From Escherichia phage vB_EcoM_CRJP21, in the sequence record OQ708376.1: DNA of 64,000 nucleotides; one strand, 5' to 3'. The notes under the pieces are model-generated. The model was not told the DNA's origin. It worked only from the letters and a program-made list of their open reading frames with translations, and ran no database searches. The position numbers were made by a program, and so were the translations under genes. Shown piece after piece: positions 32,228-60,920 of this stretch. Position 1 is the stretch's first letter; each line of letters opens with the position of its first letter.

Positions 32228-32337
32228 AATATTTCCCTTGTATGAGTTAATGTCATATACCAATATTTATCAGTACAAAATACATTTCGTTATCATTAAT
32301 AAATAAATGAAAGTTCACTACTAAAAGGGCTTAAACA

Positions 32338-37977: not shown

Positions 37978-38017
37978 GTTTATTAATTAGAGTGACGTGA
38001 ATCACATAGGAGAATAC

Positions 38018-40306
38018 ATGAATCTTACTCAATTGTTCAAAAAAAGCGACGAACTGGCAACATCTCTAGGTCATACATTCTTGACTATTGACCACGTAAG
38101 TGCCACAGTACTGACTATTGATAGCATCAAGAACGTATTTGAAGATATGAACATTGATGCAGACAAACTGCACAACCGCCTAATGAACTATCTTAAAAAT
38201 ACAACAGTTCCACATGCACCAAAAAGTGTTAAAGATGAAGACGCGAATCGCACTTCACTTCTAGTGAATCGCGTTGTACATGAGCTTTCTAAAAAATCAG
38301 TTATTGAACAACTAAAAAGTGATGATTTTTCGATTGATGCATATTTTGTTCTATTCGAATGTCTGTCTTTCCCTAACACAGCACTAGAAGCTGCGTTAAA
38401 AGAAGAAGGTGTTAGCTGTACTGAAGCTGCACGTGCATTACAGAAACACGTTGAGTCACTTGATAAGGGTATCAACTTACAAAGTATTAATGACGAACCG
38501 ATTGGAGATAAAAAAGTGGCCCAACAGCAGCAATCATCTAAACAAAAAGGTTTGGAAGACTATACAACGAATCTAACTGCTCTTGCAAAAGAAGGCAAAC
38601 TAGATCCTATGATTGGTCGCCAGAAAGAATTGTCTGCATTGATTGAGACTCTTGCTCGCAAAACCAAAAAGAATGCTATTCTCACTGGTGAAGCTGGTGT
38701 AGGTAAAACACAAATCATCGACGGGCTTGCACAAGCTATTGCTGATGGTAACGTACCTGAACACCTAAAAGACGTTGAAATTCTTTCACTAAATGTTGGT
38801 GCATTGACTGCTGGTACTAAGTATCGTGGTGAATTTGAAGAACGCATCGACAATTTGCTAAAAGAACTAAAGAAACGTGAAAATACTATTGTTTTCATTG
38901 ATGAAATTCATATTATGGTTGGGGCTGGTTCCGCAAGTAATGGTTCTATGGACATGAGCAATATGCTTAAGCCAGCACTTTCACGTGGTGAGATTCGTGT
39001 AATTGGTGCAACAACATATGATGAATATCGTAAAAATATCGAGAAAGATAGTGCATTAACTCGTCGTTTTATGAAAATTGACGTAGTTGAGCCGACAATT
39101 GATGAAACTCGTGCAATTGTTAATGGTTTGAAACCAACGTATGAAAAATTCCATAATGTTGAGTTCACATCTGATGCAATGGATGCTGTAATTTCTCTCA
39201 GTGATAAATTCCTGAAGAATAAGCACTTCCCAGATAAAGCAATTGATCTAATGGATGCTGCTGCGGCTAAAGTTCGTTCACGTGACAACAATAGTAAGCT
39301 TATTACTTCCAATTTGATTCAAGAAGTTGTTGCTGGTATTGCCAATTTGGATATCAACGTGGTTGCATGTACTGAAAGTGATCGTATGCGTAATCTACCA
39401 GATGCACTACGCTCACGTGTATACGGTCAAGAGGAAGCTATTCAAAAATTAGTTGATAACGTGATGGTAGCTCGTGCAGGACTGCGTGACAAATCTAGTG
39501 TTCAGGGTGCATTTATGTTTGTTGGACCATCTGGTACTGGTAAAACAGAAATTACCAAAGCATTAGCAGACGCAACTGGTGCGGAACTCATTCGCTTTGA
39601 TATGTCAGAATTTTCTCAAGAACATACTGTTTCTAAACTAATTGGTTCACCTCCAGGTTATGTTGGTCATGATTCTGGTAACGGTTTACTGTTGGATAAA
39701 ATTGAGCAGTTCCCTAATGCAGTACTGTTACTTGATGAAATTGAAAAAGCAGATCGTAAAGTACTACTAACCTTCCTACAGGTTTTGGATGAAGGTCGTC
39801 TGACTGGTTCTCAAGGTAAAACTGTATATTTTAATAACGTAACTGTTATTATGACTACAAACCTTGGTGCGGCTGATTCAACAAAGCGTAGCATTGGTAT
39901 GAGCGGTAGTGACACTGCACAGGACAAGGCAATTAAAGCATTCTTGCCACCAGAGTTTATTAACCGTATTGATAGTATCGTTACGTTTAAAGACCTAAGC
40001 AGTGAAGCTATTGACAGCATCATTGATAAGTTCATGGGTGGTTTGAATGAACAAGTCAAAGACCGTAATGTTAAAGTTACATTGACAAAAGCTGCACGTG
40101 AATGGCTTGCGAAAAATGGGGTAAAAGTTGGTATGGGTGCACGTCCAATGAAACGTACCATTGAACAAAACATTCGTGTACCACTAGCTAAAGAAATGTT
40201 GTGTGGTTCACTTGTGAATGGTGGTAACATTACATTTGATGTTATTGATGGTAAAATCGGTATTAAGCCGAAACGTACCAAAGCTGTAGATAAAGCACTA
40301 GTATAA
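38018..40306 (+). CDS. ClpA-like two-domain AAA+ unfoldase
   Basis: 762 aa from the ATG at 38018 (AGGAG RBS); D1 Walker A GEAGVGKT and Walker B IVFIDEIH; D2 Walker [10 protein letters not shown] and Walker [10 protein letters not shown]; long collinear similarity to E. coli ClpA (e.g. [16 protein letters not shown] vs GREKELERAIQVLCRR); retains [10 protein letters not shown] where ClpA has the ClpP-docking RKSIGLIHQD loop. Confidence 0.85.
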
Positions 40307-40343
40307 AAAAAGAAAAGGAGAGCATAATGCTCTCCTTTTTTTA
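40306..40343. terminator. Bidirectional rho-independent terminator between the ClpA-like gene and the giant gene
   Basis: A-tract, GGAGAGCAT-a-ATGCTCTCC, T-tract. Confidence 0.6.
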
Positions 40344-43300
40344 TTACTTAACTAATAATATATTTTTAATATCATTACCACTAACTTGTAGACTATCAGT
40401 GTATACTGAAAGATCTATAGTGTAACTATTTTGTGTGTAACGTTTTAACATATCATAATTACCTAAATTAATTCCATTGAAAGAATATGTAGTATTAAGT
40501 TTAAAATCATGTTCTGCACTATACATTACACCACGGAGTAAATTATTTGCATTTCTAACTTCAACTTTTTCATATCCAATCGATATAATATCATTCATGT
40601 TTGCGGCTGAACCGGATAAAACATTATTTCTAATACTATAAGGACTTATTGATTTAGGTTGAGAAACATAGGTTGTATTTTCTTCACTAATGGTTGTGAT
40701 GTTAGTAACAGTACCACCAACAACACCGATATACATACCGTCAACCATTGGGAATCCATAAACCCATATCCCTTCATTATTTCTAAACGGTTGAATAACA
40801 CTTGAATCATATTCGATAACGTTGATTTCTAAACTATCAGTCATTTTAGTTCTTGCCAATTCACTAAGAACTCCCGCACCCGTAATTGGTAAGTTATAAC
40901 CGTTATCGATAGTAATTCCATCAACATCAAATATTTCATTAGAGATTATCCAAACGTCAACGTCATCTGGTGTTATTCCGTCATTGTACTTACCACCATT
41001 TAAAGTAGTATCGTAGAAAACATCATAATTAATTACATCAATGGTGTAATTTCTATTTTGTTCATACAATTTAATACCATTCTTGACAAATTCAGGGTCA
41101 GCAAATGTTCTAACACGAACAATGTTCAATGCTAGAGGCTGTACTGGCTCATTTTGTTGTGCAAGAGTGATGTTATCATAACGGAGAACTGCACCAGTAC
41201 TCTCATCAATCAATTCAATCGTTTCCTTACCTGTATTTCTTACAGTGAATAGGATCGGAGTTGTATTGTTTTTGATGTTAGATACACGCAAGATTGTTTC
41301 CCATGTGTGATTTTGATATCTCACAAAATCTTCACCATCAGGAGTGAAAATCATCACCTTATCACCATCAGATAGGTCATTGTCAACTATTTCTGCTTCA
41401 GTTAAGCTATTAATAGATCTCACACGATAGAAATATTTTTCATCAAACTTCGATGTTGTTTTATTAATATCATTTTCAATCTTAGCATATGAAGGAATAC
41501 TTACAATTGCTTCTGTATGTTTATATGGATTGATAATTGCCATACCTTCAGTTTGATATCTGCTGTTATCACGTAATTGTACAAGAGATACATTGTCAAA
41601 CCCATATCCATCAACTGTAAATCTAATTTGACCTACATCACGCCCAGAAGGGTTTATGTCAGATATATCCACAATATAAGGATCAACTTCATCATCTTTA
41701 ACTTCCCATTTTATTGAAGAAGTTTGAGATTCCAATGCTAGGTTATCAAATGCATTCATATCATTGAAGTACTTAGCTTCAGTAATACTATCAAGTATAT
41801 ATTGATAATCAGAATACATTGGATTATTTTGATCTAGTGGTAAATCATCAAGATTTATTTCAGCTAGTTCAACCATTTCACCATTTGTGATAAAATAATC
41901 TTCCATGAAATCATCAATACTTTGTTCATCAGGTATACTTTGATATACACCGTTAACATTTAAGTAAACATATTTTCGTGGAATCATTGTAATTGCATAG
42001 ATATCAATTGGGGTCTTACTAAGAATCTCTTCAGCTTTTTCGTACTTATCAGTAGCGTCTTTGTCGAATAACCCTCTCATACCTGCTAATACGTGAATAG
42101 CATCAGTATAGAAACGGGTATCACCACCTACTTCATCATAACGATAAACATATACACCATACTCAACTTCAAGTTTAACTTTTACTTCATAGTCTGATGC
42201 GTCAGGATTTTTATCTTTAATTAATGAAATGTATTTTTGATACAATTCACTGCTTATTTCAAAATATCCATAGTTATAATCATTACTAGAAGAAAAGCCT
42301 AATGGAAGTCTAGTACTAGGATTGTCATTATAAGTAAGTCCACTAAATCCACATCCAACTTCATCGTGAATTTTCTCATCACTTATATCTTTATAAAGTT
42401 TCAAACGGTTTGCCAATGTGTTATACTGAACATATTGTCTAAGGTCAGTAAACATATCGTTATGCGTTGATTCTTTATAAACACGTTCCAATGTAGCAGT
42501 GAATTCATCAGTTGCTTCTAAATCTTCCGCATGGTCTTTATACCACTGGTTAACGCCATATGCTGTTCCTAGTGTTACATCCAATTCTGGATAGTAGATT
42601 TGCATTTGATAAGCAATAAGAAGATCGAAAGTTTCTTCACTATATTCTGGGAAAGAATATATATAACGTTGTAATTCATAGTTACTAACAGCATCCTTTT
42701 CATTGGATTGATATTTGTTATTAACACTTACTAATTCATTTATGCTTGCCAAATCTTCATTTGGTTTACACTGAATATTATCATAATGCATAATAATATC
42801 AATTTCTTGGAATCTTCTATTTGGTGTAACGAAATCACTTGGTAGTGAACCTACCTGTTCCCATTTTTGGGTAATTTCATTAAATTGAGCGTACTCATAA
42901 TCCCAAATATCTTTTTCAGTTTTGATCCAAGAACCATCAACGAAAATATATCCATTAGGATCTAAATCATTACATAGACCTTTTATTAAATCATCATCAG
43001 ATGTCTTTTGCTCTATTTGTGAACGAATTTTAGTTCTATAAGGTTTAACTTCTTCAAAATATTCAACAATTTGATTAATCAAATTATCGTTTGAATAGTT
43101 TTGAACTAATGATTGTTCCAAACCAACAATATAGATATATGATGTTTTAAATACCCAATCCACAACACTTTGTTCAACATGTACATATTTGACCATATCA
43201 AAAACAATTTCGCTTTGATGTAAATCGAAAGAATTTTTGAGTAAAGCTAGTGCTTTACGAACGTTGATTTCACGATTGCTTAGTGAACCATTATCATTAT

Positions 43301-46300
43301 GAACACTATAATCTGCGTAAAGCATATCATTGAGTTCAACTGTACTGTTTTCACGACCAATCGCTTTCCAATAAATTGAATCGCGTGATTGTGATTTAAT
43401 ATACAATGTCCAAATGTTTTCACTATCGGTAACTCTGATAATATCGCCAACTTGGTAGTTTTTAGTATTAGCATCTTCTAAGCTTGACTCTTGAGTATAA
43501 GTCGTGTTACTATCATATCCAACATCATACCAATCAGCATATGACCAGTACTGAGTCATGTCTAATGAGGTTCCTAGTGATTCAACATAATCAGATTGTT
43601 TAATCATTTTATGTTGTCCCTCACCTTTGTTTTCTAACGTTATAGTAACAACACTACCCGCGTTTGCTGGACTATTCATTAACTGAATATATCCATTTTC
43701 GTCGAAGTGAATAAAATAAACAGCACTAGAAGTTAATGGATTTGGTAGATATCCACTAGTACTTAAAATAACAGCGTCATTTTCTTTAAATTTATCACTT
43801 TCAACTGCAATAACTAATTCATTATTGTAAGACAACACACGGAAAGAAACTTCATTAGGGTTAACTTCAGTGGTTTTAACATTAAACACATCTTCCATAA
43901 CAACACTATTAGTGGTTATGTTTTGTGACCTATAATAATTATTAGCACTTTCTACAAAGTTTCTACGAGCTTCTATAACATTTTGGAACCAAGTTTTGTT
44001 TGATCCTAAACCGTTATCAACATCTGGATATAATAAATTAATCACAGAACCTGATTCAGTTGTTTCTTGACCAATTAGTGAGTTCCACATTGAATCCCAA
44101 ATTAGTGGGTTAAAGTTATAGCTGTCACCTTCTTTACATAGTTGATACTGGTCATGTTTAACAACTTCAGTACTATCCATGTAATAAGAAACAGTTAAAA
44201 TACTGGTATCATCATTCACTTTAAATTGCATATTACTAAGAATAAACGAGTTTTCATTTATTGGAGCGAACCAAGGAATGTTTAGCTGTGTTGGATCTTT
44301 AATAATACGAGCAATGTCAGTACATGATTTCGTTCTGGTATGTAGTGGTGGTACATAAATTGTATCACGTACCCAGAAATAGTATTTTGTTACATAACTA
44401 TCAGTTGAACTATCATATTCCAAAAATGTACTATAATTATCTTCAAGTGCAGTTCCACTTGGTAGATACATAGTATTATTTTTGTTTTTCTTAGCAACAT
44501 CTTTACAGTATTTGTCCCAGTTATATGGCTCAACTGGTGAACAAACCCACTCTAACACATCAATGGTACTATGTGGTAACAAACGGCCCCAGTTGTAACG
44601 TTTGTATTCATTGGTTGCATCAATATCAACATTACCGTCTGCGTCATAAATTGCACGAGTATAATCCAAATAAAATGCAGTGCTAGTGTTCCACCATACT
44701 TGACCAACTTTATCAGCACCCCAAGCCTGGATTAACTCTCCATTACTATTATACTGTGCAGGATCAACTGGTGAAGTATATGTTACGTTTTGCATAGCCG
44801 CACCTGGAATAACACCATTAATTGGGTCATAAACGTTTAGATATAGCTCAGTAATGTTAGTACGTTCATCATATGTCGTTGGACGATCAAATAAAGTACT
44901 TTGTGGTGCTTTAAAACTATATTTCTTGTCAATGTAAGCTTGACGATCATCAGTACTGGCAAAACGTGATACATAACGATACAAACGTGGACGTGTATCT
45001 GGATCAGTAAATTCAATATCAATAGAAGTGTCAAATGGAACTACCATAACTTTAGGATCAGAACCAGCAGTATAATATTGACTTTCTACTGTTAAAGTAT
45101 CTGGCATAAAGTTAGTTTCATCAACAAAATAATAATAATCACCATCTTCAAGTGGTACATTATCAGTTAAAGTTACTTTACAAAATTGTTCAGCATACAC
45201 ATCGGTATTTTCAATAGGTGTTATAGAAACCATTTGTACATTAGTATCAACCAATTCAAAAATGTTCCACAAACCATTACCGTCTTTAAACATCCACACA
45301 GATTCAGGATTTTCACCTTTACCATTAGTATAAGTTATGCGGTCATTATATGCAGTACTGAAATCTTTTGTTGTGTACGATACTTCATCCAATGTTACTG
45401 GACCAATATCTGGAAGTTGGATGTTTTCACTTCTTCCACTACGCATTGGGAATGAGAACTTACCATTTGGACGTGTAATCCAACGAGGATCTTTACCTTG
45501 CTCACCGAAGTATACAATATGATTACCATTACCATTTGAAGTTGCATTTACATCAAAAGAAACCATTTGAGGTTGTTGTTTAAATTGGTCATTGATTAGT
45601 TTAAATTGAAGGTTTTTCTTACCATCAATATTACCATATGTACCAATTTTAAATGCCCATTCTTGTAATGCTTTATATTCATCAGTGTCATATGATTTAG
45701 AAACACGAAGTACACGTTCTAAAACTTGGTTAGTACCTTTATCGTGAATGAATCCTTTATAGAAATCAACACGACTAACATCACTACTAATCATACGCTG
45801 TAGATAATCACGAGATTGATAACCAATCAAATGGTTTGACAACTCTTGTAATTGTACATCACTTACTGGAGTTTCACTATCATAATAATGTTGGAAATCC
45901 GACACTAATTTTTCAAATGATGGTAGTGTTCCAGCTTCCAAGATAATAAATCCAGGAGCTTGTAGGCGACCAGTCCATGAACCAGTAATATATCCATACA
46001 TTTTAATTAGTTCTTGAATAGAACCATATGTTGGCTGATAAATGTAATCACCAAAAATAGTTTTATCATCAAAAATAACAGCATGTTCATATGAACACAA
46101 ACTTAAACGAATCAATGCAATGCGTTTATTAGATTCTAAAGTTCTAACAGTGAAGATATTTCCAATACGAGAAGTTTCAATTTCATATTGGCGAATACCT
46201 TGGTTATTATCATCAAGTAATGACCATACACCACCATTATTTTGCGTAATAGATTGTACTGAACCAAAGTCTGCCCCAAATTTAGCGTTTGCAGCACTTG

Positions 46301-49300
46301 GGGTACAAGAAATAAATTCACCAGTTACTAGAGAATTCTGACTCCAGATCACGAAATCTTTAGCAATAGTGTTCCAATCTTGTTGAGCACCACTATCATT
46401 TACATCTTCAAAAATCCAACCATGTTCTTTAAGATATTCACCATATCCACAAATAAAAGTATAAACTTCTTGGTAACTATTGAAAACTTTACCATATTCA
46501 ATTGAAGCTTCAGACTTCCATTCATTATAATGAACAACATTACGGTTTTCCAATTTAAGAGTTACTTTTCTACCATTTTTTACTGGAAGTTTATATTTAA
46601 ATTTAGCACCAACTAGATCATATCCATCAATCTGATATGCACTACCATTCCAAGTAATTTTGATCGCACTCATTTGCTCATCACGGATATTATTAGAACG
46701 AACAAGACCAATGGTTTGGTTTTCTTGTGAAATAAGACCGAAAGATTTAGCATTGAATGTTAGCTGATCTGCTTTAGTAAATCCTCCAATTTTATGACCA
46801 ACATTTATATAAGAAGAACGAACTACATCCCCATACTTGGTGGTAATATTTTTATTTTGATACATCAAATGGTCACTTACAAACATTTGATAACCAATTG
46901 TTCTTGTGCTATTTTCACCATGAACTACTGTATTTTTATCAAAATTAATACGCTTACGTGTATCACCATAAAGGAATTGTGAACCATCAGTGAATACTTC
47001 TTTTAAGTTATCGTTGCGGGTATCCCAGAAATAGTTAGCAAATTGTGCTGGTTTAGCTTTATACAAAAGCATCATTTGGTCATATGCAAACAATGTAGTG
47101 TTCATGTATGTAAATTCCATGTCACCCATATCACCATATGTCCAAGGTTCTGCTCTATGATTTAAAGATCCAGACACTAAACCTAAAATTTCAGGTGCAA
47201 TATATTCAACCACACAAATATCAATACCAGAAGATGTTTTATTTCCAGTTTTTGTAATTTTGAATGGCTGTACACCAAATCTTTTATATTTGTCATATTG
47301 ACCACGACGATCACCAAATAAAATAGTTCCAGTACTGCTATCTCCAATAGTTCCGTCAATATCCCAAAGACCACTAGGAACTAAATCACCTTGCTCATTC
47401 ATAACAAGTGCTTCATATACATATACAACATCACTATCACGTTCACCAACTTGAACAGCCGTTGGTTCGTATTCTTGGTTCCACCAAGTTGGACGTTGTG
47501 TAAAGCCAAACATTTCCCACGGATGGGTAGCTGGGCGATATGTACCATATTGGTCAGTGTAAATGGCACGCCATGAACCACGTGCAGGAATTTCAGTACT
47601 TTGACCATTAACTACATAATAAGTGCCAGTATAGTTCCAAGTTCTCCAATTGTTAGGATCATAATCATGTGTACTATTACTGATACCATTAGTTGCGGTG
47701 AAGTTAATGTATCCACGTAGTAATAATGTTTGTTTCTCTTCAGCACTATATTCAGTTTTAGTGAAATATGGTGTAGGGAAAAGGTCATCACTATTCAATA
47801 CTGGTACGTAATCAACATCTTTGAATTTATTATCAATACTATTAAAAATTCTATTTTCTAATTCATATACAACATCATCCATTTTATCAACACCATTGAT
47901 AACACGGTATGCTTTGGAAATAATACCAGTATGACTGATGTTATAACAGCTTGGTTTACTACCAGCAGTGAGGAATGTCGCTTTTTCTGGTACATATGCT
48001 TGAAGAATACCTAAGAACTGTGGTGTTGGTGGTATAAATGCACGAATGAATCCAGAAGTACTTCCAACATTATCATAATAGAATGGGAATGAACTATCAC
48101 GTCCCATATTAATAGTAGTTAAAATTGCATCAACAATGTTTGCAGCACTATTTTGTAAAAAGTCTGATGGATTTTCATCATACATACGAAGCATTTGTGT
48201 ATTAAATTTATTAATGAATCTAAAATATTCAGATTGCATAAACATAGTTGCTTCAAACAAATCAATATCTTCATTTGCAGTATGTGCCATCAATGGAAGC
48301 ATAGATGCTTCATTTTGGATAATTTTAGTACCTACGCCATTATTAACCAATCCTTTAGCCAAACGTTCTTCATAGTCATTGAAATCATCAGAAGAACCAC
48401 GTGTAATGTTCTTTTGAATAATATCCTGAAAATGTAAAGTGTAGTCACCTTGGTTAATGTATATAATATTAGAATTATATGGGTTATTTTGTAGGTTGAT
48501 TGGAACTTCATATGCACCTAATTCTTTATTAGGAGTTACAGTACTGCTATAAGTTCTAATTTGAATAACAGAATCTTCATCCAATTCTACAGTACTATCT
48601 AGAGTGATGCTTTGTACTTGACCTTTTGAAACATTTTTGGTATATTTGGACACATCAACACCATCAACCACAACTTCAATAATATCAGAATCATTATCTA
48701 AAACTTTTTGTGCCAATTCGAATGTATGGTCATATTTTACAATCTGAACACCATCACCAGTAATTGGATGCCAATCTAGATAAGTTTCACGGTCAGCTTT
48801 ATAGTACTGATATGTTCTATCAACTTCAATAACATATGCATACATACCATCAACTGGTTCTTTAAAAACTTCCATATCATAAACAGTACTGAATACACGA
48901 TACATATCAGTACGTTGGACTTGTGGAGTTTGTTTTACAAATTGTTTAGAGTACTCTTCTGAACGAACCCAATCGGTTTGAAGATTCATTTCATTATTTT
49001 CATCAATAATGTTATAATAGTATAAACCATCAATTTCAACTTCTTTTCCAAGATGGTCATAGGTATAACGTTGGGATTGTAAAAAGTTTTCATAAATGTA
49101 ATAATTATAATCACCAAGTTCAATGTTATATCCATATACACTATCAGTTGCATAGTTGTAATTTATTTTAAAACCAAACAACTCTGAACCTTTAAAGTTA
49201 CTTGATGGATATGTAGTACTGTTGTCAAGTTTGATACCATTACGATCATAAAGTTGGAATTTAGGGAATACGTTAACACTAGTTTTTGATTGTGCACGAA

Positions 49301-50315
49301 CCCACAAAGATCCATTCCAGTACATAGAACTATTACCATACTCATTACCTTTAGTGATTAGAACAACATCACCATCTTGAGGTTCACCACTTGGGCGTGA
49401 TTCGGTTTCTTCTTCTGGATCTAGTGCTAAACCATAAACACGAGTACCATCTTGCATTTTTTTCACATATACATTATAAATTCTATTGTTTTCACCATTG
49501 TTACCAATACTGGTGAATAGAATACGCATTCCATCTTGCGGAATAATACCATCAATACGTATACCACTATTAATATCTTTTTGAACGATATCTTCAGGTT
49601 TAATAATATCAGAGAACAGATCAACAGTTCCACGGAATTTTGTACCGTAGTTAATTAGCTCAATATTTTTATTATATTCAATAATTGGTGCACGTGCACG
49701 AATAAAACGTGAATCTTGCATTAATTCTTCAGTTAATATTGAGCCATCTTCTAATGTTTCACCTAAAGTATACCAAAAGTTTTGTAGTGACCATGTATTA
49801 CCATTAAGTGCTCCACGTTCCATTACAATGTAATCAGGTGAAGTAATATTATAAGAGTTTTTAGTATCCCAAAGATATGAGCTAAAATTGTTCATTTTAT
49901 TTGGGTTAATAGCTGGAGTCCATGCATAAAACTTACCGTTGAACAAACGGCTTTCATTATCGGTTAGTGCTCCATAATGATTCATGTATCCAACTAGATC
50001 ATCATAAAATTGAATTGAACGAATTGTCGAATCATCATTTTTTGAGACGTAAGCAGTGGACAACTGATAAAGTTGACGTGCTACAGTACTTTCATGTAAG
50101 AAGATATTACCAGCAGCGGCAGGAGAACCCATATCACCAATATAGCCGTCAACTAATTCGTTTTCAGCCGGATTAAACCATTGTTGAATAACATCATCAC
50201 TGACTTTTTGAATATCTTCTAAGCCTTGCATCCACTCAGGCAATCTTTTAATAAAAAGCTTCTTCTGTACTGCTTCAGCCATCTGTGTAGGTTGAAACTT
50301 AAAATTATTAGTCAT
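40344..50315 (-). CDS. Giant virion-associated structural protein (baseplate/fibre-associated?)
   Basis: 3323 aa from the ATG at 50315 (GGAG RBS; the track ORF starts 10 codons upstream); uninterrupted ORF immediately downstream of the gp6-like and gp25-like genes on the same strand; N/Y/D/T-rich composition without an obvious catalytic motif. Confidence 0.55.
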   Translation of the reverse strand: MTNNFKFQPTQMAEAVQKKLFIKRLPEWMQGLEDIQKVSDDVIQQWFNPAENELVDGYIGDMGSPAAAGNIFLHESTVARQLYQLSTAYVSKNDDSTIRSIQFYDDLVGYMNHYGALTDNESRLFNGKFYAWTPAINPNKMNNFSSYLWDTKNSYNITSPDYIVMERGALNGNTWSLQNFWYTLGETLEDGSILTEELMQDSRFIRARAPIIEYNKNIELINYGTKFRGTVDLFSDIIKPEDIVQKDINSGIRIDGIIPQDGMRILFTSIGNNGENNRIYNVYVKKMQDGTRVYGLALDPEEETESRPSGEPQDGDVVLITKGNEYGNSSMYWNGSLWVRAQSKTSVNVFPKFQLYDRNGIKLDNSTTYPSSNFKGSELFGFKINYNYATDSVYGYNIELGDYNYYIYENFLQSQRYTYDHLGKEVEIDGLYYYNIIDENNEMNLQTDWVRSEEYSKQFVKQTPQVQRTDMYRVFSTVYDMEVFKEPVDGMYAYVIEVDRTYQYYKADRETYLDWHPITGDGVQIVKYDHTFELAQKVLDNDSDIIEVVVDGVDVSKYTKNVSKGQVQSITLDSTVELDEDSVIQIRTYSSTVTPNKELGAYEVPINLQNNPYNSNIIYINQGDYTLHFQDIIQKNITRGSSDDFNDYEERLAKGLVNNGVGTKIIQNEASMLPLMAHTANEDIDLFEATMFMQSEYFRFINKFNTQMLRMYDENPSDFLQNSAANIVDAILTTINMGRDSSFPFYYDNVGSTSGFIRAFIPPTPQFLGILQAYVPEKATFLTAGSKPSCYNISHTGIISKAYRVINGVDKMDDVVYELENRIFNSIDNKFKDVDYVPVLNSDDLFPTPYFTKTEYSAEEKQTLLLRGYINFTATNGISNSTHDYDPNNWRTWNYTGTYYVVNGQSTEIPARGSWRAIYTDQYGTYRPATHPWEMFGFTQRPTWWNQEYEPTAVQVGERDSDVVYVYEALVMNEQGDLVPSGLWDIDGTIGDSSTGTILFGDRRGQYDKYKRFGVQPFKITKTGNKTSSGIDICVVEYIAPEILGLVSGSLNHRAEPWTYGDMGDMEFTYMNTTLFAYDQMMLLYKAKPAQFANYFWDTRNDNLKEVFTDGSQFLYGDTRKRINFDKNTVVHGENSTRTIGYQMFVSDHLMYQNKNITTKYGDVVRSSYINVGHKIGGFTKADQLTFNAKSFGLISQENQTIGLVRSNNIRDEQMSAIKITWNGSAYQIDGYDLVGAKFKYKLPVKNGRKVTLKLENRNVVHYNEWKSEASIEYGKVFNSYQEVYTFICGYGEYLKEHGWIFEDVNDSGAQQDWNTIAKDFVIWSQNSLVTGEFISCTPSAANAKFGADFGSVQSITQNNGGVWSLLDDNNQGIRQYEIETSRIGNIFTVRTLESNKRIALIRLSLCSYEHAVIFDDKTIFGDYIYQPTYGSIQELIKMYGYITGSWTGRLQAPGFIILEAGTLPSFEKLVSDFQHYYDSETPVSDVQLQELSNHLIGYQSRDYLQRMISSDVSRVDFYKGFIHDKGTNQVLERVLRVSKSYDTDEYKALQEWAFKIGTYGNIDGKKNLQFKLINDQFKQQPQMVSFDVNATSNGNGNHIVYFGEQGKDPRWITRPNGKFSFPMRSGRSENIQLPDIGPVTLDEVSYTTKDFSTAYNDRITYTNGKGENPESVWMFKDGNGLWNIFELVDTNVQMVSITPIENTDVYAEQFCKVTLTDNVPLEDGDYYYFVDETNFMPDTLTVESQYYTAGSDPKVMVVPFDTSIDIEFTDPDTRPRLYRYVSRFASTDDRQAYIDKKYSFKAPQSTLFDRPTTYDERTNITELYLNVYDPINGVIPGAAMQNVTYTSPVDPAQYNSNGELIQAWGADKVGQVWWNTSTAFYLDYTRAIYDADGNVDIDATNEYKRYNWGRLLPHSTIDVLEWVCSPVEPYNWDKYCKDVAKKNKNNTMYLPSGTALEDNYSTFLEYDSSTDSYVTKYYFWVRDTIYVPPLHTRTKSCTDIARIIKDPTQLNIPWFAPINENSFILSNMQFKVNDDTSILTVSYYMDSTEVVKHDQYQLCKEGDSYNFNPLIWDSMWNSLIGQETTESGSVINLLYPDVDNGLGSNKTWFQNVIEARRNFVESANNYYRSQNITTNSVVMEDVFNVKTTEVNPNEVSFRVLSYNNELVIAVESDKFKENDAVILSTSGYLPNPLTSSAVYFIHFDENGYIQLMNSPANAGSVVTITLENKGEGQHKMIKQSDYVESLGTSLDMTQYWSYADWYDVGYDSNTTYTQESSLEDANTKNYQVGDIIRVTDSENIWTLYIKSQSRDSIYWKAIGRENSTVELNDMLYADYSVHNDNGSLSNREINVRKALALLKNSFDLHQSEIVFDMVKYVHVEQSVVDWVFKTSYIYIVGLEQSLVQNYSNDNLINQIVEYFEEVKPYRTKIRSQIEQKTSDDDLIKGLCNDLDPNGYIFVDGSWIKTEKDIWDYEYAQFNEITQKWEQVGSLPSDFVTPNRRFQEIDIIMHYDNIQCKPNEDLASINELVSVNNKYQSNEKDAVSNYELQRYIYSFPEYSEETFDLLIAYQMQIYYPELDVTLGTAYGVNQWYKDHAEDLEATDEFTATLERVYKESTHNDMFTDLRQYVQYNTLANRLKLYKDISDEKIHDEVGCGFSGLTYNDNPSTRLPLGFSSSNDYNYGYFEISSELYQKYISLIKDKNPDASDYEVKVKLEVEYGVYVYRYDEVGGDTRFYTDAIHVLAGMRGLFDKDATDKYEKAEEILSKTPIDIYAITMIPRKYVYLNVNGVYQSIPDEQSIDDFMEDYFITNGEMVELAEINLDDLPLDQNNPMYSDYQYILDSITEAKYFNDMNAFDNLALESQTSSIKWEVKDDEVDPYIVDISDINPSGRDVGQIRFTVDGYGFDNVSLVQLRDNSRYQTEGMAIINPYKHTEAIVSIPSYAKIENDINKTTSKFDEKYFYRVRSINSLTEAEIVDNDLSDGDKVMIFTPDGEDFVRYQNHTWETILRVSNIKNNTTPILFTVRNTGKETIELIDESTGAVLRYDNITLAQQNEPVQPLALNIVRVRTFADPEFVKNGIKLYEQNRNYTIDVINYDVFYDTTLNGGKYNDGITPDDVDVWIISNEIFDVDGITIDNGYNLPITGAGVLSELARTKMTDSLEINVIEYDSSVIQPFRNNEGIWVYGFPMVDGMYIGVVGGTVTNITTISEENTTYVSQPKSISPYSIRNNVLSGSAANMNDIISIGYEKVEVRNANNLLRGVMYSAEHDFKLNTTYSFNGINLGNYDMLKRYTQNSYTIDLSVYTDSLQVSGNDIKNILLVK

Positions 50316-50351
50316 TTTTGGACTCCATATAATTCGTTCATTCATTTGATT

Positions 50352-50359
50352 TATTTATG
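50352..50359 (-). promoter_or_regulatory. Possible T4-type late promoter variant (CATAAATA) upstream of the giant gene
   Basis: 7/8 match to TATAAATA on the minus strand, about 37 nt upstream of the start codon at 50315. Confidence 0.3.
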
Positions 50360-50362: not shown

Positions 50363-50392
50363 TAAAAAAGGCGTTCCGAAGAACGCCCGTTA
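50363..50392 (-). terminator. Rho-independent terminator after the gp6-like gene
   Basis: On the minus strand: GGCGTTC-ttcg-GAACGCC followed by TTTTTT. Confidence 0.55.
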
Positions 50393-50394: not shown

Positions 50395-53300
50395 TTAAGA
50401 ACCGATATTAATATTACTTTTAGCTAGTGAGTTAACAATTTGAACATTTTCAACAGATGCAGTACTCAAAAATATTTGGTCTGAACGTGAAGGGATTTCA
50501 AATAGAGAGCCAAATTTTGAATTTGGATTTTGTGCAACTATAACAATGGTACTAATATGTCTACCTAACTGTGAGTGTATGTAAGTACACAAATCAGTAT
50601 AATAGAAACTTTCACCGAAATCCCAGTTGTCAACATTGAAGTATTCATTAGTTAATGCTATAACATTTTGACGAATTTCATCGTCACTCATTGTGCTGTT
50701 TGGTAATTTCACTACTTTAAAATCAGCTTTGTAATCTTCAGCAGCACTGTTGCCAAATAAAGGTAAGTACTCAGCACTATGCCAAATAATACTATCACTA
50801 ATGACTATTTTTTGTTCAACATCTTTGAACATATCTTTCAATTCAACCGATGTAGGTGGTTTAGGAATACTACCAACAGCATTATTTTTCAACCAAACGT
50901 CAACTTCAGTTTTATATGAATTGGTTAATACATACATATCAATTAAGTTTGTTCTACTAGGATCAATGCGATTGTCGTCAGGTGCATAGTGTTTCCAATG
51001 GAAGTCTATACTAGTACGTGCATTAGTTTTAACAGTGTACTGTGAAGTAACATCTTTGTATCCATAATAATCTAGCTTCTGATTCTCGTCAGCATTAGTT
51101 CCCATGTTATTAATTGCACGATAAAAAGCCAATTCAGGACTAACAGTGCCAGTATCATCGGAATAAGTTAAATTACTAATTAGCTGTCCTAAACGATCAT
51201 TGTTATTACCAACTGTTTGTTCAATAAAATAATATTTACCATCATAGTTAAAACCAACTAAAAATCCAGAACCTTTACTATATAATCCACTCAATGTGGT
51301 TGAACGAATTGCGTTATTTCTAACAAATTCAGTTCTTTTATATGCATTCGGCTCTGCCAAGGCTTGTTCCATTGTATAAGACCACGATGAATCAAGAAGT
51401 GTGAAGGTATCATTTGGTAACGACAGTACTGATATAGTGAAATCACTATTTTCCTGAAATACCAAAATACCACCATATTTTAATGCATCGGTTCCAGTCC
51501 AAGTAGGAACAATTTCTTTAAATTGGTTTGGTTCCAATGGTATACCATTACTATCTACTTTCCTAGATGTAACAATAACACGAGAACCATCTAGATAGCC
51601 ATTCTCTTGTTGAATTGTGTCATAAATTTGAAAATCTATATTACTTGTCAATCCTGAATTACTACTACTAGTAGTGTTAGATGATAAAATTTCAATCTTA
51701 TCACTTTGAACTGTACCAGTACTAATATCAGTAATTTTTTTAGATGATACAAAGTAAAATCTTACTTTTTCTCCACCCACAAAAATATATTCAATACCGT
51801 TAGCATCAAATTCCCAAGTTTCTGCTGTATATTTTACATTAATTATAATTAAAACTTCATTACCATTATATACAATAGTATCATCATTGGTACTTACTTC
51901 AATAGGAACCCATGATGTCGTTTCTTTGTCATGTACAATAACAAAATCAGTTTTTTTATCTAGCATAGCAGAAATTGCTTGAACTTCAACCGAGTTAAAT
52001 CTAGTTCTATATGGTAAAATGTACTCTATGGCTTGCATTCCACTTGGAACCGATGTACTCAGTACATAAAATCCATTATCCAATACACTAACTACACTAG
52101 CCCATATAGTAGTTCCAGAATTAGAAAATTTAATTAGAGTACCAACCTGATATGAACCATAAACTGTACCAGATGAACCCAAAATTCTACCATATGTGTT
52201 AGTTGTATAATTTGAATTGTATACCGGAGTCCATGCTTGTTGTATTTCAATACCAATTGTATTTGATGGAAACGCTTGGTAACGTTGTATTACCGCATTT
52301 TCACCAATCAATGGTTGAATATTGTCAATAACAATACTAGCATTTGTTTTTGTAGTTGGTAGCAATAATGATCTATTAAATTGTGTGTTTTCTTGATATA
52401 ATGCACCATCATCACTAAAAACATCGGTATTTTGATACTTACCAGTAGGATCATTAATATCAATAAATCTTGATTGTCCACTATAAATTCTATTAATAGC
52501 TTTAGATTTAAGTACAGTATTGCCTAAACTAAGTGGTGCAATATTATAATCTTCACCATTGACAAAACGGTTTTGTGTATAGTACATTTGTGGTGCACGT
52601 GCTTTAATCTGCTCAATAGTCTCTGCACTTTGTGCACGGTCGGACTCATATTGTAATGAAAAACGTATATCCAATGTACTAGATTCATAACTTGACTGTG
52701 TTTTTGTACGATATGTATATTTTACGCTTTTGTTTTGAATTTCAGAAGTTTTAATGTTATATGTTTTACCATTACTAACACGATACCATACGCGGAACGT
52801 CCCACGGGGAACAACACCACTTCTTGAGTCTGGATACTTAATTGTTATTTGATCTTTATCACGAGTAGTAACAGCAAAAATTGTTTTTAATTGACGATTA
52901 ACAGTGTTATATGCAATACTTTCCATTGATGGAACTTTTGTCCATTTGGTACGAACAATACCATCTTCATTTATTTCTTGAACCCATACATCAGTTTCGT
53001 TGATATTATCAACGTTAATATCTTGTATACGGTTCTCTTCACGGATAGCATATTGATAATCTTGATATGTCAATGTACCTTGTACGAAATATACAAAAAA
53101 ACCAGTATTTGGTGAACTAAATCCATTACCATCATTTTGATAAACAATATATTTTTGCTCTTGTGGTTCTGGATGTCGTTCTTCAACACCAACAGACGTA
53201 ATATCAGGATTCACTACTTCAAATGTCATAGATTCACCATTGACAGTTGCAATAAATGGAATACTGGGTGCTGTCATTGGGATGGTGTTCATTCGATATA

Positions 53301-53856
53301 GTTGACGAGAGACACCATTAACATCAATACGCTTGACTGGATTACCAAATTGGTTAGTACTGACAAATGAACTGTTCATTACTAGAATGAAGTTTTCATA
53401 CCAGTTAGCATCCATCGGGTCATTCCAACGAATGATTTTATCTTTTAATGATTCATTAAAACTATTACGAACATCTTGGTTTGTTTTAATTTCGGTTAAT
53501 TTAGCAACTGCACGACCTGGATATGAGCGGCGTGGTGAGTAAGAAATCATTTTAGCTAGTTTTAGTACTGATGCACGACGAGTTGCAGTATCTAAAAAGT
53601 TTTCACGTGTGTTCAAATCCATACGAAATGCCAAGTTCTGCCCTAGCATAGAAATCGTATCTAAAATAAAAATAAACTGGTCGTTTTCGATCCAGTCGTT
53701 GAATGAGTCTGGGTAAGTTGCACGTAGATAATCAATCATACTCTGACGGATAGTATCGAAGTCATAAGCTGTAAGATTGATTTTATAAAAACTTTCATAT
53801 ACTTGAGTCCAATCCTCACCAGCGTATAAATTTGATTGCCTTTTTTGTTGTGACAT
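50395..53856 (-). CDS. Baseplate wedge protein (T4 gp6-like / baseplate J-like)
   Basis: 1153 aa; AAGGAA RBS; N-terminal region YDFDTIRQSMIDYLRATYPDSFNDWIENDQFIFILDTISMLGQNLAFRMDLNTRENFLDTATRRASVLKLAKM follows the gp6 N-terminal pattern (IKQNLIEWL...LNVLCDLLAYNTLYIQQFGNAAVYESFMRTANLRSSVVQAAQ). Confidence 0.65.
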   Translation of the reverse strand: MSQQKRQSNLYAGEDWTQVYESFYKINLTAYDFDTIRQSMIDYLRATYPDSFNDWIENDQFIFILDTISMLGQNLAFRMDLNTRENFLDTATRRASVLKLAKMISYSPRRSYPGRAVAKLTEIKTNQDVRNSFNESLKDKIIRWNDPMDANWYENFILVMNSSFVSTNQFGNPVKRIDVNGVSRQLYRMNTIPMTAPSIPFIATVNGESMTFEVVNPDITSVGVEERHPEPQEQKYIVYQNDGNGFSSPNTGFFVYFVQGTLTYQDYQYAIREENRIQDINVDNINETDVWVQEINEDGIVRTKWTKVPSMESIAYNTVNRQLKTIFAVTTRDKDQITIKYPDSRSGVVPRGTFRVWYRVSNGKTYNIKTSEIQNKSVKYTYRTKTQSSYESSTLDIRFSLQYESDRAQSAETIEQIKARAPQMYYTQNRFVNGEDYNIAPLSLGNTVLKSKAINRIYSGQSRFIDINDPTGKYQNTDVFSDDGALYQENTQFNRSLLLPTTKTNASIVIDNIQPLIGENAVIQRYQAFPSNTIGIEIQQAWTPVYNSNYTTNTYGRILGSSGTVYGSYQVGTLIKFSNSGTTIWASVVSVLDNGFYVLSTSVPSGMQAIEYILPYRTRFNSVEVQAISAMLDKKTDFVIVHDKETTSWVPIEVSTNDDTIVYNGNEVLIIINVKYTAETWEFDANGIEYIFVGGEKVRFYFVSSKKITDISTGTVQSDKIEILSSNTTSSSNSGLTSNIDFQIYDTIQQENGYLDGSRVIVTSRKVDSNGIPLEPNQFKEIVPTWTGTDALKYGGILVFQENSDFTISVLSLPNDTFTLLDSSWSYTMEQALAEPNAYKRTEFVRNNAIRSTTLSGLYSKGSGFLVGFNYDGKYYFIEQTVGNNNDRLGQLISNLTYSDDTGTVSPELAFYRAINNMGTNADENQKLDYYGYKDVTSQYTVKTNARTSIDFHWKHYAPDDNRIDPSRTNLIDMYVLTNSYKTEVDVWLKNNAVGSIPKPPTSVELKDMFKDVEQKIVISDSIIWHSAEYLPLFGNSAAEDYKADFKVVKLPNSTMSDDEIRQNVIALTNEYFNVDNWDFGESFYYTDLCTYIHSQLGRHISTIVIVAQNPNSKFGSLFEIPSRSDQIFLSTASVENVQIVNSLAKSNINIGS

Positions 53857-53923
53857 AATTTATTCCTTTAAATCAGTAAAGTACTAGTTCAGTACTGGGA
53901 ATTATATATAGAAATATTTATTC

Positions 53924-53954
53924 AAAAAGAAAAGCACTCCGAAGAGTGCTTTTG
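53924..53954 (-). terminator. Rho-independent terminator after the gp25-like gene
   Basis: AGCACTC-cgaa-GAGTGCT stem with a T-tract on the minus strand. Confidence 0.5.
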
Positions 53955-53957
53955 TAA

Positions 53958-54368: not shown

Positions 54369-54857
54369 TTATACGGATTCAACAATACGTGCCATCTTTT
54401 CCGCTCTTGAAGTGGTTTGTTTATACCATGTACTATCACGCAATTCCTTACCAGCAGTTTTATAATCAGCCTTACCTAATGCGGTCATTGCTTTTTTAAA
54501 TTTTAAAACTTTGGTTTTTCCCATCTGGAATACCATCAACCATAATACACGTTGAACCTGTACAGGTGCGGTCATACCAAATTGTTCATAAATTGATTTT
54601 GCATCATTGTACGCAGTTTGAGCATCTTTAAGAAGAAGTTGGTCAGCTTGTGCTTCTGTTAAACCATTCTTGAAATTTTCACCAGGTAAAACTAGGTGAC
54701 CATAGCCAATAGTATCAAGACCTAAGCTGTCTTTATATACCCAAAACTTATCATTTTTAAAATAACCAAGTTTTTTCTGATAAGCAATAGTTCCTTCAAA
54801 TTCTTTAATTTCCTTAAAAAATTGCTCATCTGTATTTTTAATTTCCCATTTACTCAT
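54369..54857 (-). CDS. Endolysin, T4 lysozyme (GH24)-like
   Basis: 162 aa; EFEG...YKDSLGLDTIGYGHL supplies the catalytic Glu/Asp/Thr triad pattern of T4 lysozyme; MVFQMGKTKVLKF...W..QT.SRA..MARI matches T4L MVFQMGETGVAGF...WYNQTPNRAKRV. Confidence 0.8.
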   Translation of the reverse strand: MSKWEIKNTDEQFFKEIKEFEGTIAYQKKLGYFKNDKFWVYKDSLGLDTIGYGHLVLPGENFKNGLTEAQADQLLLKDAQTAYNDAKSIYEQFGMTAPVQVQRVLWLMVFQMGKTKVLKFKKAMTALGKADYKTAGKELRDSTWYKQTTSRAEKMARIVESV

Positions 54858-54873: not shown

Positions 54874-54881
54874 TATTTATA
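54874..54881 (-). promoter_or_regulatory. T4-type late promoter (TATAAATA) upstream of the endolysin gene
   Basis: Perfect TATAAATA on the minus strand 16 nt upstream of the ATG, with a GAGGA RBS between them. Confidence 0.45.
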
Positions 54882-54893
54882 GTACTAAAATAT

Positions 54894-57557
54894 TTATTGA
54901 CATGCCTCTAAACGACGAGCCATTAACTCAGCACGGCGAGTAGTTTGGCGATACCAAGCTGAATTACGTATTTGAGCAGCAGCTTGTTTATAATTACCTT
55001 TAGCTAATTCAGACAACATAGTTTTAAATTTAAGTACCCCACCTTTACCCATCTGGAATACCATTTGGCATAGTACTTGTTGAGCCAAATAAGGTGTTTT
55101 CATGTTGTATGAAGCATAAATTGATTTAGCATCATATATAGCTTTACTACTATCACGAACTAACATATCGTTGGCTTGCTGTTCAGTTATTCCATCTGAA
55201 AAGTTTTCACCACTAATAATTAAGTGACCATAACCAATAGTTGGATACCCACGACTATCCAAATAACGCCAGAATTTACCATTACGATAATATCCTTTTG
55301 CTTGTTGGTATTGTAATGTACCTTCATATTCTTTTAATTCAGAAATAAATTGTGCATCACCTGGAACAACTTTCCAATCGATTGCAGTTTTATCAACATT
55401 TCCAATATTATAGGTAGGTTGCTCCACCGGAGTTGTTGAAGCTCCACTTCTCTGTGTTCTTCTCCTACGAGGCACATGACGAGAACCACGTTGAGAATAT
55501 CCAGTACCTATCGTTTTGATTTTTGTTGTAACTACCAATTCATCACTATCAACTGAAGGTTGTACAACTGCTTTTGGAGCAGATTGATTAGTTGCTTGAC
55601 CACCAATTAATGTTTTATTCGCCGCATCAGACCCTGTTCCTGTTTGTGAAGCATAAAATAATCCTGGGTCAACAGAACCACTGAATCCAAGAACATTTGC
55701 TGATGTAACACGAATTTCAAACTGTATGACACCATTTGCTTTTCCAACAACTTGACCTTTTTGAACAACATCTTTGTTTAATAAATCAGATTGAATATTA
55801 TAAAAAATAGATTTATATCCAGACTTATGTTGTATTAAAAGAGCACCATTAGTAATTACTACCACACCACCATCTGGTGCAACTACATCACCTTTACATT
55901 GTATTTCCCAACCTGAACGGTCTGCCTTTCCTCCACTTTGTGTTGGAACACCTTTCCCCCAGTAACCATATTGTCGAATAGTACCGCTACATGGCATTAA
56001 CATATGTAAACCTTCATATGTAATACTATATCCAGTCATCCCAGGATCAGATGTCATCAAATCTTGTGATTGAACTTGTTCAGTTTCTGATGTATAGTTA
56101 ACAAACTGAACAGCTTCAGTGTCTTGTGCTACGGGTAATTCTGGTGATACATCATTTGCTGGTTGTGGTTGTACTGGTGATTCACTAGAACCACTTCCAC
56201 CACCTTGTCTTGGTGGTTCAACATAACTACCATGATTTTCAGCGTTAACCCATGCAGCAATATCATGAATGTGTTCATTAAGACCAGCAGATGGTGTTCT
56301 AAAGTTTGGTGCAGTAAATTCAGCAGTACCGCTATTACCACCACTATTAACTGTTAATGTTTGACCACCACCACTAATAATTGCTGATGATGATCCAATT
56401 AGGTTTGCAGATGTTGCGGCAGAAATAGAAGCATTTGAACCAGCCGTAATATCAGTACTGCTACCACTTTGCATACGTAATGATGCAGCAGTAACTAAAC
56501 GAAGGTCTGCCCCAGAATTAACAACAACTTGTCCACCAACTTTTGCATCAAGAGCACCAATTAGATCTAATTTAGTATTTGCACCAACTCGTGCATTGAA
56601 ATCTTGTCCGGTTTCAATATTATATGAACGTCCAGCAGTAATATTAATATCTTGACCAGCACGAATATTAATATTCTTATCACAGTGCATGTCAATATCA
56701 CCTTCACCAGTGAATTTTATACGTGCAGTGCCATCACGATTAATTAAAAGAACATCACCAGTAGCTTCTGATAAAAGAAGTTGTGCACCACTACGTGTTT
56801 TTATTACGACACCTTCATTTTTACGAGAACCAACACGTGTATCGTTTACTGGGTTATTAAATTGTGTATCTTGATATCCATCTGGGTCTTGATCCCACGT
56901 TGGTGCTGTTAATTCCTCTTCAGTATATCCATCATCAATAATAAAACTATTACCACGTGGCGAAGACATACCATATACAGTACTGGTGGTTTGTCGAGTA
57001 CTACTACGATTCGCCAACCCAGCTTCTTCGTCATATAAAAGGTTTTGCTTTTTAAGACCTGCGATAATTGGAACGTTAGCATATTTGTCTTGCATATCGG
57101 TAGTGATAGTGTTACGATCATAGTCAGTAACAGGAAGTGGCATATCAGTTCCACCATAATTACTTACTTCAGTTGCCATACCTGGAACCATCGTATTCAT
57201 ACGCTGGTCATATACACAACCAATCCAATATGCTTGGAATGTACGGGCTTGTGCAAAAATTACAACAACTGTACACCCTACGTCTGGTGGTACTGCCCAA
57301 AAACCGTATCCTTTTGGATATTGACCATATGCATCAGCACTTGGAATACCTGGTGTTTTACCAGCAAAAGGAGACATGTAAGATGCTTCTATCCATGATT
57401 CTTTTGAGTTTTTATCACTTTGAGAACCTTGTATCCAAACTTTCAGTTTTCCTGATTTAGTTGGATCTCTGTTATCCATAACAGTTGCTAACTGCGGATA
57501 AGATGGGTCAAAACGACCCAACTGCTGTTGTGCATACTTTTTACTTGTATCTGCCAT
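54894..57557 (-). CDS. Baseplate central spike / hub protein (gp5-like) with C-terminal GH24 lysozyme domain
   Basis: 887 aa; N-terminal gp5/VgrG-type OB-fold pattern (KSGKLKVWIQG...GYGFWAVPPDVGCTVVVIF...AYWIGCV); middle beta-helix-like repeats (NINIRAGQDINITAGRSYNIETGQDFNARVGANT...); degenerate M23-like segment; C-terminal T4-lysozyme-like domain (EYEG...YLDSRGYPTIGYGHL...MVFQMGKGGVLKF) paralogous to the adjacent endolysin. Confidence 0.75.
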   Translation of the reverse strand: MADTSKKYAQQQLGRFDPSYPQLATVMDNRDPTKSGKLKVWIQGSQSDKNSKESWIEASYMSPFAGKTPGIPSADAYGQYPKGYGFWAVPPDVGCTVVVIFAQARTFQAYWIGCVYDQRMNTMVPGMATEVSNYGGTDMPLPVTDYDRNTITTDMQDKYANVPIIAGLKKQNLLYDEEAGLANRSSTRQTTSTVYGMSSPRGNSFIIDDGYTEEELTAPTWDQDPDGYQDTQFNNPVNDTRVGSRKNEGVVIKTRSGAQLLLSEATGDVLLINRDGTARIKFTGEGDIDMHCDKNINIRAGQDINITAGRSYNIETGQDFNARVGANTKLDLIGALDAKVGGQVVVNSGADLRLVTAASLRMQSGSSTDITAGSNASISAATSANLIGSSSAIISGGGQTLTVNSGGNSGTAEFTAPNFRTPSAGLNEHIHDIAAWVNAENHGSYVEPPRQGGGSGSSESPVQPQPANDVSPELPVAQDTEAVQFVNYTSETEQVQSQDLMTSDPGMTGYSITYEGLHMLMPCSGTIRQYGYWGKGVPTQSGGKADRSGWEIQCKGDVVAPDGGVVVITNGALLIQHKSGYKSIFYNIQSDLLNKDVVQKGQVVGKANGVIQFEIRVTSANVLGFSGSVDPGLFYASQTGTGSDAANKTLIGGQATNQSAPKAVVQPSVDSDELVVTTKIKTIGTGYSQRGSRHVPRRRRTQRSGASTTPVEQPTYNIGNVDKTAIDWKVVPGDAQFISELKEYEGTLQYQQAKGYYRNGKFWRYLDSRGYPTIGYGHLIISGENFSDGITEQQANDMLVRDSSKAIYDAKSIYASYNMKTPYLAQQVLCQMVFQMGKGGVLKFKTMLSELAKGNYKQAAAQIRNSAWYRQTTRRAELMARRLEACQ

Positions 57558-60912: not shown

Positions 60913-60920
60913 TATTTATA
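60913..60920 (-). promoter_or_regulatory. T4-type late promoter (TATAAATA) for the baseplate operon
   Basis: Perfect TATAAATA on the minus strand about 36 nt upstream of the ATG at 60877. Confidence 0.5.

Follow-up and report, generated by a model that had tools for sequence, protein, structure and literature searches.

A 382-kDa virion protein of RaK2-like jumbo myophages, encoded directly after the gp6-like baseplate gene, as a candidate peripheral wedge protein

INTRODUCTION

In the baseplate wedge of phage T4, the large, multi-domain protein gp7 joins the gp6 dimer in a (gp6)2-gp7 heterotrimer, held together by a helical core bundle and a trifurcation unit, and is encoded right after gene 6 in the collinear block 53-5-6-7. 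In phage P2 the genes run W (gp25)-J (gp6)-I (gp7-like), and P2 gpI, Mu gp48 and TssG of the T6SS are minimal gp7-like wedge partners of about 180-330 aa, likewise encoded after a gp6-like gene. Afp12, Pvc12 and Alg12, from extracellular contractile injection systems, are large wedge proteins of about 1000 aa in which gp6 and gp7 are fused. Their outer, 'gp7-like' portion is a hotspot of variation where different fibres are bound (PMC8894135). The N-terminal anchor and gp10-like branching domains of CBA120 TSP4 (PDB 7rfv) were also counted among the closest known systems.

The protein studied here is already present in several described jumbo phages, as 121Q gp582, phAPEC6 gp245, the PBECO4 and G17 orthologues, CBB_236 and PA5oct gp128, always in the same place after a gp6-like gene. 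Using mass spectrometry of purified virions, phAPEC6 gp245 was found with 17 unique peptides at 7.6% coverage (PMC7247149), and CBB_236, which is 58% identical, was found in virions with 21 peptides (PMC5259590). PA5oct gp128 is among the two largest proteins of that phage, with its neighbour gp129 annotated as baseplate wedge, and 'the largest ORF' served as anchor for genome alignments in the CBB study (PMC5259590). The gene and its presence in virions were thus already known from GenBank and published proteomes, and nothing sets the present protein apart from the 121Q, phAPEC6, CBB and PA5oct entries, whose assignment stops at 'structural'. We here compare this locus with the systems above.

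RESULTS

Reading frame and identity of the giant gene

The window analyzed here is a stretch of 64,000 nucleotides from Escherichia phage vB_EcoM_CRJP21 (OQ708376.1). Its minus strand holds an uninterrupted open reading frame at 40344-50345, giving 3333 aa from the first ATG and translated without any internal stop. We preferred the start at 50315 over the ATG at 50345, because a GGAG located 7 nt upstream, the 9972-nt length of the annotated 121Q CDS, the N-termini of homologues (45 aligned sequences) and the protein mass all agreed with it. The features are as follows.

40344-50315, minus strand: giant CDS, 3323 codons plus stop (9972 nt), stop codon at 40344-40346
50323-50326, minus strand: GGAG, resembling a Shine-Dalgarno sequence, with a 7-nt spacer to the ATG at 50315 (seen by direct reading of the sequence)

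The coordinates and codon count of the original prediction were hence right, with the strand, which it had not given, being minus. The protein produced from the 50315 start has a calculated mass of 381.86 kDa and a pI of 4.6, with phAPEC6 gp245 listed at 381.88 kDa (PMC7247149). Its computed composition (D 8.1, N 7.9, Y 7.1 and T 7.1%) agreed with the description of an N/Y/D/T-rich product having no obvious enzymatic motif, and a motif and transmembrane scan found neither catalytic motifs nor a transmembrane segment. The 10-kb stretch had an identity of 100% to its counterparts in Escherichia phages vB_EcoM_G17 and Sharanji, 99.9% to those in phAPEC6 and PBECO4, and 99.2% to that in 121Q; these phages are RaK2-like jumbo myophages of the genus Asteriusvirus. 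The gene is annotated as 'hypothetical' or 'virion structural protein' in these records (gp582 in 121Q, gp245 in phAPEC6), and PHROG 10938, 'virion structural protein', matched over residues 1-3320 with E=0. It was therefore correct that this is a giant virion protein of the baseplate module, as mass spectrometry of the relatives attests, but not that it is novel, being annotated in GenBank/RefSeq and found in published virion proteomes. Taken together, it is the largest virion protein of the Asteriusvirus (RaK2-like) jumbo myophages, a 382-kDa, acidic, non-repetitive, multi-domain and mostly beta-structured chain.

The giant ORF was covered to at least 80% in 34 of the 57 matching phage records, and 17 were at least 99% identical. 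Comparison with 121Q gave a dN/dS of 0.013 (78 synonymous and 4 non-synonymous changes), and these data showed that the ORF is a real gene under strong purifying selection, neither a chance reading frame nor an artefact. Of the 82 codon differences to 121Q, 57 fell within codons 1-1000, and the last ~820 codons had none; this uneven spread suggests a putative recombination mosaic inside the gene.

Frameshifts or stops revealed by resequencing had been named as signs of an assembly artefact, and that reading, or the related one of a pseudogene, draws on three Salmonella phage SD-* records that annotate the ORF in 3-4 pieces. In SD-1_S14, three CDSs resulted from deletions of 11 nt and 13 nt (24 nt together) near residues ~570 and ~1907, at these window equivalents.

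44583-44594 and 48592-48605: sites equivalent to the two SD-1_S14 deletions

SD-2_S15 and SD-6_S16 are also split, and the SD-series splits represent either assembly errors or viable split variants. Another candidate for a natural split was seen in L005, a 315-kb metagenomic contig (10001-10700) in which the N-terminal domain forms an ORF of 167 aa apart from one of 4730 aa, but was rejected, since the reading frames showed two frameshifts that compensate each other, one at a T-run and the other at a (CA)n tract, with a sequencing error as the probable cause. The search for a split ORF among related phages gave no convincing natural case. A single intact ORF was found in most independent isolates, the listed relatives were all giant ORFs, and peptides have been recorded from the 381.88-kDa product, which together with the dN/dS effectively refuted the artefact or pseudogene reading, now the least credible of all considered here. 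Absence of the protein from virions, which would also have spoken against the original prediction, was not the case either, considering its detection in phAPEC6 and CBB virions.

Gene order in the baseplate module

The window contains homologues of gp53, gp5, gp25 and gp6, all encoded on the same strand upstream of the giant gene.

59832-60146, minus strand: gp53-like wedge gene of 104 aa, the first in the collinear 53-5-25-6-giant block (CBB_242 in PMC5259590)
57571-59820, minus strand: virion structural protein of 749 aa without a family match, between the gp53-like and gp5-like genes
54894-57557, minus strand: gp5/VgrG-like hub-lysozyme, 887 aa, with the lysozyme domain at its C-terminus
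54369-54857, minus strand: T4-type lysozyme, a separate gene of 162 aa
53958-54353, minus strand: gp25-like sheath-initiator/wedge gene, 131 aa (Pfam GPW_gp25, 1.2e-8)
50395-53856, minus strand: gp6-like baseplate wedge gene, 1153 aa, immediately upstream of the giant gene (PHROG 219 'baseplate wedge subunit', E 1.2e-20)

The order in the window is thus 53-like, 749 aa, 5-like, lysozyme, 25-like, 6-like and giant. Next come a Clp-like gene in convergent orientation, a structural protein of 501 aa and a gp15-like gene. In the T4 record the order is 53-5-6-7-8-9-10-11-12, so that 53-5-(25)-6-giant is collinear with 53-5-6-7 of T4 and the giant gene stands where T4 has gene 7 and the genes after it; this comparison bore out the placement originally proposed, after the gp25-like and gp6-like genes at the site of gp7. 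No other candidate for gp7 was found in the baseplate module of the window. The order gp25, gp6-like (Pfam DUF8360, 1123-1519 aa) and giant was furthermore kept in five loci of relatives at 24-31% identity (L003, L005, L006, L007 and L008), such that the giant gene directly followed the gp25-like and gp6-like genes in all six loci examined, the window included. In L003, L007 and L008 the start of the giant gene overlaps or abuts the stop of the gp6-like gene, which suggests translational coupling and a stoichiometric partnership of the two products.

Several neighbouring features were seen in the same region. The hub region has two lysozyme domains in tandem genes (54369-54857 and 54894-57557, minus strand). 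The 749-aa protein (57571-59820) is a possible tape-measure or hub candidate, and at ~1.5 A per residue its length would correspond to ~112 nm, near that of the tail (123-128 nm). The gene convergent with the giant gene, at 37997-40306 on the plus strand, encodes a full-length ClpA/ClpB-like double-AAA+ protein of 769 aa (AAA_2 at 2.5e-49, ClpB_D2-small and Clp_N), and was not found beside the giant gene in the distant relatives examined. In 121Q, an HNH homing-endonuclease gene (L001 25518-26282) separates the gp25-like and gp6-like genes; at the corresponding site of the window, which is of the G17/Sharanji type, there is no HNH gene at 53857-53957 but a gap of ~100 bp, in which an ATAAATA motif and a terminator-like hairpin are found. 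Finally, the phAPEC6 text mentions a 'Gp44 baseplate wedge', by which Gp244 seems to be meant, the gp6-like protein of Table 1 in that study (PMC7247149), and if so, no additional wedge protein was reported there.

Promoter-like and terminator-like signals

The signals around the giant gene, and the ATAAATA sites in the window, are as follows.

50369-50388, minus strand: terminator-like hairpin with a T-run, located between the stop of the gp6-like gene and the giant gene
50352-50359, minus strand: CATAAATA, T4-late-promoter-like element before the giant gene, the sole copy in the window with 8.3 expected
40313-40339, minus strand: terminator-like 12-bp hairpin directly after the giant gene stop, before the convergent ClpA/B-like gene
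32264-32305, 50352-50359, 53915-53921, 54874-54897 and 60913-60920: ATAAATA (T/CATAAATA) sites near structural genes

The late-promoter-like motif that had been noticed ahead of the giant gene was thereby confirmed. A second form, TATAAATA, was found in 2 copies in the window as compared to 10.4 expected, both being intergenic and upstream of minus-strand baseplate genes, and the core ATAAATA occurred 14 times versus 38 expected, i.e. was about 3-fold depleted. Several of the ATAAATA copies were intergenic and located just before gene starts, at 53915, 54874 and 60913 on the minus strand and at 32299 on the plus strand. This depletion together with the placement before genes fits a T4-type late promoter, and in the 121Q record a gene shortly upstream of the baseplate module is annotated as late sigma factor. 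As judged from these signals, the giant gene is expressed late and was shown to have its own late-promoter-like element, Shine-Dalgarno-like sequence and flanking terminator-like hairpins. The hairpin at 40313-40339 is common to the giant gene and the ClpA/B-like gene.

Family, conserved blocks and structure models

A search of 5.8 billion proteins gave 199 relatives, and all of the 120 listed were giants of 2780-5638 aa. Their comparison divided the protein into a conserved and a variable part, with two segments standing out within the former.

42966-50315, minus strand: residues 1-2450, the family-wide conserved part
40347-42965, minus strand: residues 2451-3323, the lineage-specific, faster-evolving C-terminal part
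49869-50276, minus strand: residues 14-149, conserved N-terminal domain (LP..Q.E...KF...GYIG...R..YQL...YSW.PPI...YYW)
45666-46058, minus strand: residues ~1420-1550, among the most conserved stretches (EH..FD..T.F, W.GRL.APGF and FY.G.I..KGT)

Mapping the distant relatives (24-31% identity) on the query gave conserved blocks at residues 20-150, 150-465, 550-950, 1050-1700, 1805-2130 and 2250-2450, with large lineage-specific insertions between blocks, especially after W149 and near residue 1750-1800. Among close relatives, identity per 100-residue window was 44-73%, mostly 55-73%, over the first 2500 residues and 29-51% over the last 820, with residues 2450-3323 being alignable only in relatives of at least 44% identity. 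When the C-terminal 874 aa were searched against 1.84 billion representatives, only seven matches were obtained, two of them giant proteins aligned over their own C-terminal region and five short proteins of 60-343 aa at 36-79% identity, which are apparent fragments of the giant family; no domain shuffling of this part was seen among these representatives. Similarly, a profile of residues 14-149 searched against 5.8 billion proteins matched no smaller named relatives, the domain being found only in the giant family, with short matches (up to 244 aa, most on contigs of a few kb) that we take to be fragments of that family. No internal repeats were found in the giant protein. Larger relatives among the distant homologues (P0074-P0120 and L007, up to 5638 aa) carry additional CBM_5_12, FG-GAP_2, Laminin_G_3 and Gly_rich domains between the conserved blocks, which hints at insertion sites that may be surface-exposed and used for carbohydrate or host binding.

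AlphaFold models built on 23-sequence alignments covered residues 1-1000 and 1040-2200. The AlphaFold2 model of residues 1-1000 (pLDDT 73.7) had confident beta-rich domains at 130-600 and a ~50-residue helix at 686-735, with residues 1-70 being of low confidence yet highly conserved. In the model of residues 1040-2200 (pLDDT 68.8), confident beta-rich domains were found at 1209-1419 and 1559-2129, and the very conserved residues ~1420-1550 were helical with low confidence. As modelled, the domains appear globular and beta-rich, not of fibre or tape-measure architecture.

Searches for relationship to known baseplate proteins

The domain-wise search for known domains that had been proposed for segments of the ORF found none, with Pfam, NCBIfam and PHROGs applied to the whole protein and six segments at E up to 10 returning only its own PHROG. 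PDB sequences gave no match at E<=10 to the protein (phmmer), to a 46-sequence family profile or to the N-terminal-domain profile. The family HMM scored at most 0.3 bits against T4 gp5-gp12, gp53 and wac. Using hhalign, probabilities were 0.07-0.35% against T4 gp7, gp10 and a 22-sequence alignment of the gp7 family (for the family 0.35% and 0.1%, and with deeper alignments 0.2% and 0.1%, the latter two runs being on trimmed alignments), and at most 1.8% against gp6, gp8, gp9, gp11, gp12, gp53, gp5 and wac. No fold similarity to T4 gp6-gp12, gp53 or wac was detected with the models of residues 1-1000 and 1040-2200 (pLDDT 73.7 and 68.8). The proposal that the ORF represents a fusion of wedge and fibre functions thus found no support, as no segment was similar to these T4 proteins in sequence or profile, none was seen to be so in fold within the modelled residues, and no fibre-like repeats were seen.

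With regards to the gp7 family, Pfam Gp7_helical, Gp7_5th and Gp7_6th had no match to the giant protein or its segments at E<=10, with T4 gp7 itself, as positive control, scoring 1e-30 to 1e-47 on its Pfam domains. The giant gene does lie immediately downstream of the gene 6 counterpart, as does gp7 in T4, and this is kept in the five distant loci. Among the gp7 properties compared, that position is the one found in the giant protein, and membership in the gp7 family is unsupported; we infer that it is an analogue of gp7 in function and position, homology not being demonstrable. Its chain has three times the length of T4 gp7 and gave no similarity to it in sequence or profile, nor in fold as far as modelled, and it would be expected to partner a gp6 dimer. 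The gene order gp25-gp6-giant also matches that of the minimal wedge partners P2 gpI, Mu gp48 and TssG, but the giant segments had no Pfam match to these even at E<=10. The conserved core and variable C-terminus of the giant protein have a parallel in the variable hotspot of Afp12, Pvc12 and Alg12; these three proteins are however fusions, whereas the gp6-like protein is here encoded by a separate gene, and no homology was detected.

Searching for signs of a tail fibre or tailspike (repeats, coiled coil, beta-helix, Collar, Peptidase_S74 or Gp34_trimer) gave none, the models being globular and multi-domain. The features of a tape measure, i.e. a predominantly alpha-helical chain with a length matching the tail, were not those of this protein, with its beta-rich models and a chain about four times too long. 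Neither polymerase motifs nor a polymerase fold match, as for an N4-like virion RNA polymerase, were found.

DISCUSSION

Our analyses lead us to favour, with moderate confidence, a role of the giant protein as the chief component at the periphery of the baseplate wedge, in the gp7 slot, with its conserved part binding the gp6-like ring and its variable end facing fibres or host. Structurally it would stand in for T4 gp7, and probably also for much of gp8-gp11, with one copy per wedge and six per virion. The conserved 2450-residue part would bind the gp6-like dimer or ring together with gp25 and gp53, with residues 1-70 and ~1420-1550, segments highly conserved yet of low confidence in the models, as candidate inter-subunit interfaces. 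The fast-evolving C-terminal ~870 residues may face outward and either anchor lineage-specific fibres or touch the cell surface. Upon host binding, a trigger would then be passed to the gp6/gp25 ring, whereupon sheath contraction starts. Published measurements (including PMC5259590) give a baseplate of 35-36 x 15 nm and a tail of 123-128 nm, and by mass arithmetic such a baseplate would accommodate six copies of the giant protein (2.3 MDa) together with twelve of the gp6-like protein (1.6 MDa).

It is also conceivable, but rather unlikely, that the protein forms a scaffold for the tail surface or a fibre network, produced from the baseplate module yet located outside the wedge core, for example as a branched-fibre hub or an anchor of 'hairy' whiskers. 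The tight linkage to the gp6-like gene, with overlap in three loci, argues against this, as do the lack of repeats, coiled coils and trimeric fibre motifs, the retention of the gene in very distant relatives as well as in RaK2, which is described without whiskers, and the report that RaK2 fibres attach via gp528 and not via the giant protein. That T4-type gp7 was fused in evolution with the gp8-gp12 wedge and fibre modules, or that the ORF is an extremely diverged homologue of them, would agree with the location in place of T4 genes 7-12, between the gp6 and gp15 homologues, with a length of 3323 aa comparable to the summed T4 peripheral wedge chains, and with the ~50-residue helix at 686-735 being placed like T4 Gp7_helical (643-689), a resemblance only; considering the negative sequence and profile comparisons with those T4 proteins, we regard such an origin as improbable.

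Two further readings take the protein out of the wedge altogether. N4 gp50 is a precedent for a giant ejected virion protein, and a size of more than 3000 aa together with presence in the virion could suit an internal protein of the head or tail lumen that is injected into the host. The gene is however found in the baseplate block and not in a head module, the protein has no polymerase or other catalytic motifs and no RNAP fold match, and a late sigma factor of T4 type is annotated in the phage, making this alternative very improbable. Being the largest gene of the tail module, it might also be taken for the tape measure, but 3323 aa at ~1.5 A per residue would give a tail of ~500 nm as compared to the 123-128 nm observed, and the 2200 modelled residues are mostly beta-structured, so that this idea can hardly be upheld.

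Returning to the peripheral wedge protein, a more far-reaching version of this assignment would be that a single 382-kDa chain, built of folds unrelated to those of solved baseplate proteins, replaces the whole T4-type periphery (gp7-gp11), and may even replace the supposedly universal gp6-dimer partner of gp7/TssG type. We regard this version as unlikely, but if it is true, RaK2-like jumbo phages build the wedge of a contractile tail on a different architectural principle.

As the gene is known, annotated and verified by mass spectrometry, the observation of the ORF itself adds little, and the mildly surprising part is limited to the failure of all homology tests. Nonetheless, in a widespread clade of jumbo phages, of which several members are under study for therapy, no gene product is larger than the giant protein, and it is probably the main block of the baseplate periphery, which links host recognition to tail firing. 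One giant chain is kept from E. coli phages to contigs of ~500 kb, with no match to a known fold detected. This wide conservation together with the lack of a detected known-fold match makes it a reasonable target for cryo-EM, and a test of whether the gp6-gp7 wedge core is universal.
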